DNA from: Octopus vulgaris
Lineage: Eukaryota
NCBI GenBank assembly: GCA_951406725.2
Contig: OX597819.1
Span: 16,864,001 to 16,928,000, forward strand
Length of the DNA: 64,000 bases
Direction: 5' to 3'
Of this stretch, positions 24,967 through 25,280 are shown in pieces. The position numbers and the translations under genes were made by a program. Numbering within the stretch: position 1 is the first letter of the stretch; every line of letters begins with the position of its first letter. The notes beneath the pieces were generated by a model that searched no databases, was not told the origin of the DNA, and was given only the letters and a program-made list of their open reading frames with translations.

Positions 24967-25280
24967 TATTGTTGTATTTGGGGATGGTTATGTTGCCAGT
25001 TTAGCCAATGAAAACACATGTACTATATATTTGGTGTTCACTTGCTTCAGGTTTATTTTATATTAATTGTATTTCGGCTGATCGTTAGTAAGGAAAGACA
25101 TACAAAAAAAGAAAGAAGAAAGCAAAGGACCACTGATGAGGTCACAGAAGTGTGACGAAAGAACTCTGGCCGAAATACAATTAATATAAAATAAAGCTGA
25201 AGCAAGTGAACAGCAAATATACAGTGCGTGTGTTTTTATTGGATAAACTGGCAACGTGACCAACACCAAATACTACAATA
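24967..25280 (+). mobile_element. Penelope-like terminal unit: inverted ~112-bp arms with a hammerhead between them
   Basis: 24967-25078 is an imperfect reverse complement of 25169-25280. Hammerhead immediately before the right arm; ends in (CA)n/(TA)n. Inverted pLTRs and hammerheads are established traits of Penelope-like elements. Confidence 0.55.
25130..25169 (+). ncRNA. Minimal type-I hammerhead ribozyme motif
   Basis: CCA-CTGATGA-G-GTCACA(GAAG)TGTGAC-GAAA-GAAC-TC-TGG: stem I CCA/TGG, intact core, 6-bp stem II, minimal stem III, CUC cleavage triplet (cut after 25166). Confidence 0.7.

Follow-up and report, generated by a model that had tools for sequence, protein, structure and literature searches.

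The 64,000-nt window analysed here, from Octopus vulgaris contig OX597819.1, is eukaryotic, microsatellite-rich DNA that carries a 370-bp unit (24911-25280) made of two short head-to-head copies of one abundant repeat, with a hammerhead motif (Table 1). The inverted arms, 24967-25078 and 25169-25280, are identical at 100 of 112 positions without gaps (E 3e-38), as an earlier note made from the sequence had reported when it placed an inverted 112-nt copy just upstream of the hammerhead. The left limit given there, 24967, does not hold: contig and read depth carries the left copy on to 24911, and it alone runs 56 nt further, into a tail that is absent from the right copy. The tail is present in all 4 runs surveyed, with 24940-24965 among the bins of highest depth, and its frame is open and matches an Octopus bimaculoides gene model (P0004, below).

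Table 1. Features of the head-to-head unit and its flanks (positions in the 64,000-nt window; a point marks features given no strand).
Feature	Position	Strand	Remarks
(TA)n left flank	24888..24910	.	Likely belongs to the microsatellite target; A at 24911 in most aligned copies, extending (TA)n
One-sided 56-nt 3' extension (tail) of the left copy	24911..24966	-	Family sequence; ORF codons about 9-27
Left (inverted) copy, 112 nt, 5'-truncated	24967..25078	-	5 private changes vs family majority
Family start codon position in left copy	24989..24991	-	Here mutated to ATA
GGC at head-to-head junction, common to both copies	25076..25078	.	3-nt microhomology or later small-deletion scar
Right copy, about 200 nt	25076..25280	+	5' part, hammerhead, UTR-like stretch, first 8 ORF codons
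Minimal type I hammerhead motif	25127..25171	+	Helix I 5 bp + bulged A, helix II 6 bp
Extra G between A9 and G10.1	25140..25140	+	Known trait (PMC4209133)
Predicted cleavage site, after C17 of CUC	25166..25167	+	Hammerhead consensus applied to the sequence
Family start codon position in right copy	25256..25258	+	Here mutated to GTG
(CA)n, then mixed (TA)n microsatellite, right flank	25281..25327	.	Read from sequence

Set against the family majority, the 12 differences between the arms divide into 5 on the left, 6 private changes within the right arm and 1 case of subfamily variation. The insertion thus appears old by its divergence, with about 5% decay per arm. Both copies have lost the start codon that the family keeps: 24989 is C in 98-99% of the summed contig depth and more than 93% of RNA reads, and 25256 is A in more than 98% of the summed contig depth and 59-68% of RNA reads. 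Because the two flanks share (TA)n, no target duplication is separable at the locus.

We surveyed the family in 4 of 24 runs, namely 2 of contigs (X1 and X2, the latter presumed to be DNA) and 2 of raw RNA reads (X22 and X23), with family sequences aligned to 24901-25290 at 80% likeness. Matches amount to 5226 and 5822 contigs and 2254 and 2203 RNA reads, figures that mark an abundant dispersed repeat and are not a copy number. Coverage of the family is deepest where the hammerhead motif lies. From the family ATG at 25256-25258 in the right arm, an open frame of 27 codons extends to 24911. Loose ends of the alignments pile up at 24988 in all four runs (63 and 78 contigs, 158 and 174 reads) and their consensus begins with CAT on the plus strand, so relatives agree in sequence from the ATG onward and diverge upstream of it. 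Conservation that starts exactly at the ATG, combined with an open frame, is as expected of a coding parent. The O. bimaculoides gene model starts with M at this same codon and is identical at 24 of 27 positions. The family ORF is retained for about 25 nt in the right copy and for about 80 nt in the left. The family sequence may well be present in existing repeat libraries (Repbase, the O. vulgaris library).

Searches for a coding partner gave little. Judged by eye, the 130 stop-to-stop frames of at least 100 aa in the window include no Penelope-like element (PLE) ORF, and protein searches tied no reverse transcriptase or GIY-YIG domain to the family, finding only P0004; the locus itself holds only 27 codons of ORF start. 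A profile search with a 30-aa frame against 1.84 billion proteins returned three weak matches (E 3-5e-4) in repeat-bearing proteins, unrelated by inspection and Pfam, which we ascribe to chance. P0004 (UniRef A0A0L8I3J7) fuses the ORF start of the repeat to a protein of nuclease type, which its residues 31-136 match; we take PF09588 and PF01771 to denote a YqaJ/SWIM-type nuclease. A nuclease borne by the element was considered and judged unlikely. By sequence comparison P0004 is probably an annotation chimera, since residues 31-136 align with P0005 from residue 1 onward and the corresponding segment of P0006 is preceded by a SAP-type start. No shorter relatives were found, and an Atlas search gave no lead (best score 0.84). 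Family DNA patterns had 0 matches in the metagenome, prokaryote genome and viral contigs searched, and three family motifs had 0 matches in the PMC8557442 supplement, where line breaks could hide one. Family motifs were likewise absent from the 5 kb of supplement text of PMC13282606.

The ribozyme motif reads clearly. Helix I pairs GG(A)CCA (25127-25132) with TGGCC (25167-25171), C3-A9 takes up 25133-25139, and helix II pairs 25141-25146 with 25151-25156 in 6 bp closed by G10.1-C11.1; GAAA follows at 25157-25160, G-AA-C at 25161-25164, and U16.1-C17 at 25165-25166. The conserved core and helices I and II are all present in this copy, and the minimal type I hammerhead noted earlier near 25130-25169 is confirmed as 25127-25171, with a predicted cut after 25166. 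Helix III is vestigial, with A-U and G-C pairs around AA, and this loop is not palindromic, as 25160-25165 is non-self-complementary in its two central bases; folding prediction gives it a pairing probability of about 0, that is, neither a stable monomer helix nor a palindromic dimer helix. A strict hammerhead descriptor has 1 match in the 64-kb window, compared with 3 in 300 first-order Markov windows of 64 kb each (both strands). Rfam scores no hammerhead at E<=10 in 24940-25275, where its 9 matches are every one to other families, and over the whole window it shows microsatellite and hairpin noise among the best 150 of 376 matches. Folding of the isolated motif is no better than that of shuffles (z about -1).

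An extra base after A9 is a standard published trait of PLE minimal hammerheads (PMC4209133). The earlier note had likened the extra G here to an extra A in another family, and a second hammerhead with an extra A is indeed present in the window. This second hammerhead-like motif, at 57420-57560 on the minus strand (core 57529), belongs to another family and combines the extra A after A9 with an 8-bp helix II and GGAA for GAAA, about 100 nt before (TA)n. It is probably the family A of that note, and motif scans of the window find only one copy of its type. About 280 nt upstream of it lies an 85-nt inverted repeat (57810-57892 and 57920-58004; 86% identical, 27-nt spacer) with no Pfam match, which may be another head-to-head joint, far from the ribozyme.

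Other repeats surround these motifs. A DNA transposon remnant at 25717-26775, presumably of Tc1/mariner type, has 170-nt terminal inverted repeats that are 79-82% alike around a DDE_3 fragment (PF13358, E 5e-12). Upstream, 24172-24290 and 24356-24474 form a 119-nt direct repeat (87% identical, 184-nt spacing), and there is another repeat at about 25565-25690; we assume that both resemble common octopus SINE-type repeats. A frame at 58042-58386 (+) resembles the end of a LINE reverse transcriptase, which we take to be RTE-like.

Whether this copy could cut itself is a separate matter. Folding predictions for a sense transcript spanning the whole locus pair the arms at -166 kcal/mol, and the predicted pairing probability of helix I, 0.81-0.87 without the left arm, becomes 0.00 with it; in a single copy it is 0.8-0.99. 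Under these folding models self-cutting in place seems unlikely, because arm pairing abolishes helix I, helix III is unstable and non-palindromic, and an extra G is a damaging variant in a viroid hammerhead, according to a review (PMC3705267). The core also varies within the family: 25139, the A9 position, is C in 67 X1 contigs, or 61% of summed depth, and in almost none of the X2 contigs or RNA reads, a lineage-specific expansion with an altered core. An ATG at 25136-25138, in the ribozyme core, is in frame with the position of the 25256 ATG, with two TAA stops intervening; this is probably chance.

The feature that drew attention to the locus is the position of the left break. The homology between the arms had been described as starting 2-3 nt past the predicted cut; the first common base is indeed 25169, but the break may lie anywhere in 25169-25172, 2-5 nt past the cut. 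Upstream of the spacer, the family sequence closes with GGC ahead of TGAT, and the GGC at the junction continues it equally well, which leaves the left break free over these four positions. The earlier note had proposed that the inverted arm was copied from a self-cleaved RNA whose 5' end was set by the ribozyme, a model that a pile-up of breakpoints at the cut would support. Such a pile-up is absent from the contigs and reads sampled: among the joints listed, 14 others are head-to-head, and their 28 ends spread over 25076-25320 with none at 25164-25175. The sample is small and filtered (joints from the best 15 of 63 rows, loose ends from the best 24 of 785), and 0 of 28 ends still allows up to about 10% of ends at the cut. 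This count omits 8 rows marked as opposite strand, of which 6 represent uninterrupted family sequence that switches arms (offsets within 9 nt), one (25068/25160) reads as a deletion variant and one (25080/25121) is ambiguous; the last, together with 3 rows without direction that are also omitted, is used only for the count of starts.

One contig bears directly on this junction. In X2, a contig of depth 49.7 with at least 41 letters on each side has the same junction plus 7 letters, by which the family sequence is continued through 25164, so that the extra letters cross the predicted cut by 3 nt. This longer junction combines two table rows that we assigned to one contig by their equal depth. 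Were the contig orthologous, the junction in the window would have arisen later, by deletion between short GGC-like repeats, and the left copy would at first have included bases on either side of the cut; were it independent, it would add a second end close to the ribozyme, though one on the side that cleavage cannot yield. With it, 2 of 16 inverted-arm ends fall within 5 nt of the cut (25169-25172 here, 25164 in X2), and the two may be one insertion.

The starts of hammerhead-side copies bear on the same question. Among the rows listed, 10 of 21 starts lie at 25066-25080 and none at 25167-25172; these are estimates from the letters shown and include this copy and the X2 contig, and the cluster is partly shaped by where the family sequence of the reference begins. 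Read with that caution, the cluster suggests that the RNA naturally begins about 90 nt before the cut. The family sequence there, at 25071-25078, is AAAATGGC, which in our view resembles a YY1-type promoter motif.

The RNA runs likewise have no spot where many RNA molecules begin or end. They are ordinary RNA-seq with a related label, of which about 6 in 100 were read, and could miss short cleavage products or circular RNA; 62% of the reads are under 90% alike, and they come mostly from other subfamilies and fall equally on both strands. Hundreds of reads cross the cut into divergent downstream sequence, with 85, 94 and 137 in X22 past 25174, 25175 and 25184, respectively.

The proposal that the 5' end of the inverted arm was fixed by ribozyme cleavage is therefore not supported, given the 28 other ends, the contig that crosses the cut and the lack of an RNA end pile-up; such a cause for the left-arm break is in our estimate very unlikely. 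Since the other copies sampled do not break at the predicted cut, the coincidence of this break with the cut site is probably incidental, and the template was likely uncut RNA. A literature search, mostly without full text, found no report placing PLE inversion breaks at a ribozyme cut. The wider suggestion of a protein-free unit delimited by the ribozyme fares no better, as copies end inside the first 27 ORF codons and the copy with the hammerhead starts about 90 nt before the cut.

The best explanation, to which we give a good probability, is that the locus is an old, severely 5'-truncated Penelope-like insertion consisting of two head-to-head copies in a microsatellite, likely made from uncut RNA. 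As no reverse transcriptase is linked to the family, we infer PLE membership from architecture, and on that footing the PLE-type hammerhead and PLE-type inverted copy recognized earlier are upheld. Specifically, the locus has a pseudo-LTR-like unit with a minimal type I hammerhead, a terminal repeat that overlaps the first codons of an ORF (itself presumed to be of PLE nature), an adjacent inverted 5'-truncated copy whose joint varies, as the 14 other, scattered joints illustrate, and a one-sided tail, here 56 nt compared with the published 30-40. By analogy, the locus works like a PLE insertion stub.

The proposed sequence of events begins with the protein of the element, which would nick both strands of AT-rich DNA, as in the anole PLE (PMC11167929). 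Reverse transcription would then start at two sites in the element's own ORF, about +25 and +80 from the ATG, giving rise to the tail, and each cDNA would extend toward the RNA 5' end. The right cDNA would pass the whole ribozyme and reach about 25076, near many copy starts and a likely pseudo-LTR transcription start; the Penelope promoter and start site sit in the pseudo-LTR (PMC2377424). The left cDNA would stop in or just after the ribozyme, and the two would be joined head to head in the microsatellite, the GGC at the joint reflecting either microhomology or a subsequent 7-8-nt deletion. After that, both arms would decay by about 5% each, losing the ATG. An older proposal for head-to-head copies, self-priming on an antisense template (PMC3846280), may also apply, but this junction is not a palindrome.

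Close parallels are found in Pen2a_Av of Adineta vaga (PMC3846280) and in the scheme of PMC8557442, with a pseudo-LTR of about 200 bp including the first ORF codons, a shorter head-to-head inverted copy, a one-sided tail, microhomology at the 5' joint and a simple-repeat target. In Pen2a_Av the pseudo-LTR takes in the first 12 aa of the ORF, or 22 with a one-sided 31-bp tail, and an adjacent shorter inverted copy is described, head-to-head being the commonest arrangement and the 5' joint showing microhomology (PMC3846280); PLE insertions with an inverted 5'-truncated copy, a one-sided tail and microsatellite targets are described in PMC8557442. In contrast to what the available text of these sources describes, our locus has no ORF body between the repeats, a tail of 56 rather than 30-40 nt, no target duplication separable from the flanks and no coding partner found in the searches.

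The hammerhead in turn resembles the minimal hammerheads of metazoan PLEs in being of type I with a short helix I, a long helix II with G10.1-C11.1, an extra nucleotide between 9 and 10.1 and a vestigial helix III (PMC4209133). These are mostly single dispersed motifs, sometimes close opposite-strand pairs (PMC4209133). Unlike those covered in the available part of that paper, loop 3 is here a non-palindromic AA, and cleavage is only predicted. Poseidon of Anolis carolinensis shares copy ends at two sites inside the ORF start, A/C-rich sequence and the lack of RNA reads ending at the ribozyme cut (PMC11167929). However, its ORF starts inside the ribozyme and its reverse transcription at +111-118, whereas the ATG here is 90 nt after the cut and copies end at about +25 and +80.

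Among octopus PLEs, Hydra-1_Obim and the Octopus Naiads also have (TA)n targets, and Hydra-1_Obim carries a hammerhead about 100 nt from its 3' end (PMC8557442 supplement); in the part of that source available, its hammerhead is a different one, with a longer palindromic helix III, and its N-terminus differs. PLEs are reported to account for 6.83% of the O. vulgaris assembly and to form 190 families there (PMC13282606), and a paper on the giant squid counts 235 hammerhead loci (PMC6962438).

Other readings of the locus share much of this architecture. The one closest to the original proposal holds that the left cDNA of a PLE stub ran off the 5' end of ribozyme-cut RNA (25167) and lost 2-5 nt at joining. 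It draws on the nearness of the break to the cut, on the intact hammerhead core of this copy and on the ability of PLE hammerheads to cut, weakly as dimers (PMC4209133) and with the element's protein (PMC11167929). If ends were placed uniformly, the chance that one of two lands in the 6-nt interval would be 4-6%, a figure that overstates the surprise because the site was chosen after the sequence had been seen. The X2 contig with the same junction holds C16.2-U16.1-C17, bases of the upstream cleavage product, and this, with the empty interval at 25164-25175 among the joints listed, the lack of an RNA end pile-up and the non-palindromic helix III, makes the reading quite improbable. Ends could also be enriched near the cut without cleavage, if the folded hammerhead (core and helix I, 25164-25171) made reverse transcriptase stall or switch template. 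Helix I pairs well in a single copy and is what an enzyme coming from the 3' side would encounter first, and the arm ends at 25164 and 25169-25172 would fit; yet helix I is only 5 bp with a bulge, and the other 28 ends of the joints listed avoid the region. We consider this unlikely, and it is a refinement of the PLE stub reading that involves the same element.

A greater departure is to regard the repeat as a non-autonomous short retroelement of about 270 nt, from about 25066 to the end of the tail, or as a retrozyme-like tandem unit derived from a PLE pseudo-LTR and moved by a borrowed enzyme. The clustered starts, the lack of a coding partner in protein searches and the kinship of frog retrozymes to pseudo-LTRs (bioRxiv 10.64898/2026.07.22.740005) speak for it. 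So do 4 and 5 RNA reads that join 25252-25258 to about 25071-25077, readable as head-to-tail units of about 185 nt, although these joints come without direction. Against this, the loose letters that RNA reads carry ahead of 25109 number 63-65 at the median, exceeding the 43 nt that lie between there and 25066, the onset of conservation at the ATG and the open frame fit a coding parent, and internal initiation on full-length RNA would also yield short stubs from the transcription start. Nor is this locus tandem: it has a single hammerhead, and the window holds no second copy of the family. Non-LTR retrozymes are likewise protein-free, with a type I hammerhead and PLE pseudo-LTR kinship, but those described in the portion of the preprint available are head-to-tail tandems with a ribozyme per unit, and by that tandem definition our head-to-head locus with one ribozyme is not a retrozyme. 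On balance, a non-autonomous unit is doubtful. As an observation in itself, the RNA joins may represent head-to-tail units or circles of about 185 nt, each with a hammerhead. Finally, long inverted arms around a short spacer, in which Rfam scores no hammerhead, could be a MITE or another DNA-transposon derivative with an incidental hammerhead-like motif. This is extremely unlikely: joints and arm lengths vary between copies, which argues against fixed terminal repeats, one arm is 56 nt longer, and the motif, expected by chance in 1 of 100 windows, sits where family coverage is deepest.

The RNA runs also differ from the contigs in their substitutions. A>G and T>C changes account for 116 of 213 and 115 of 201 listed differences from the reference in X22 and X23, compared with 26 of 94 and 21 of 74 for the contigs, a five-fold excess of RNA over contig runs across 24901-25290, whereas C>T and G>A rise little. 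This comparison is between unmatched RNA and DNA, with contigs that drop rare variants and two arms that count sites twice, so its p-values come out too small. The pattern likely reflects A-to-I editing of this repeat family, and such editing is known to be heavy in octopus repeats (PMC5625713). The excess suggests that head-to-head stubs supply double-stranded RNA to ADAR.

As it stands, the locus is ordinary retroelement debris. A bolder account would have the family spread largely as a protein-free unit of about 270 nt whose copies preserve two 5' ends of the RNA, mainly that of a transcription start near 25066-25080 and, to a lesser extent, one that the hammerhead generates, with the left arm as a fossil of the latter. 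We hold this to be a long shot; if true, it would give genomic evidence that PLE hammerheads cut in vivo and that cut RNA is reverse transcribed and inserted, a question that in vitro work has left open. The in vivo role of PLE hammerheads has been described as unclear (PMC8557442), and the thousands of short copies of this family offer a cheap breakpoint map and thereby a readout for that role. Judging by the present sample, the usual template would be uncut RNA whose start lies about 90 nt before the cut, which fits the anole biochemistry.
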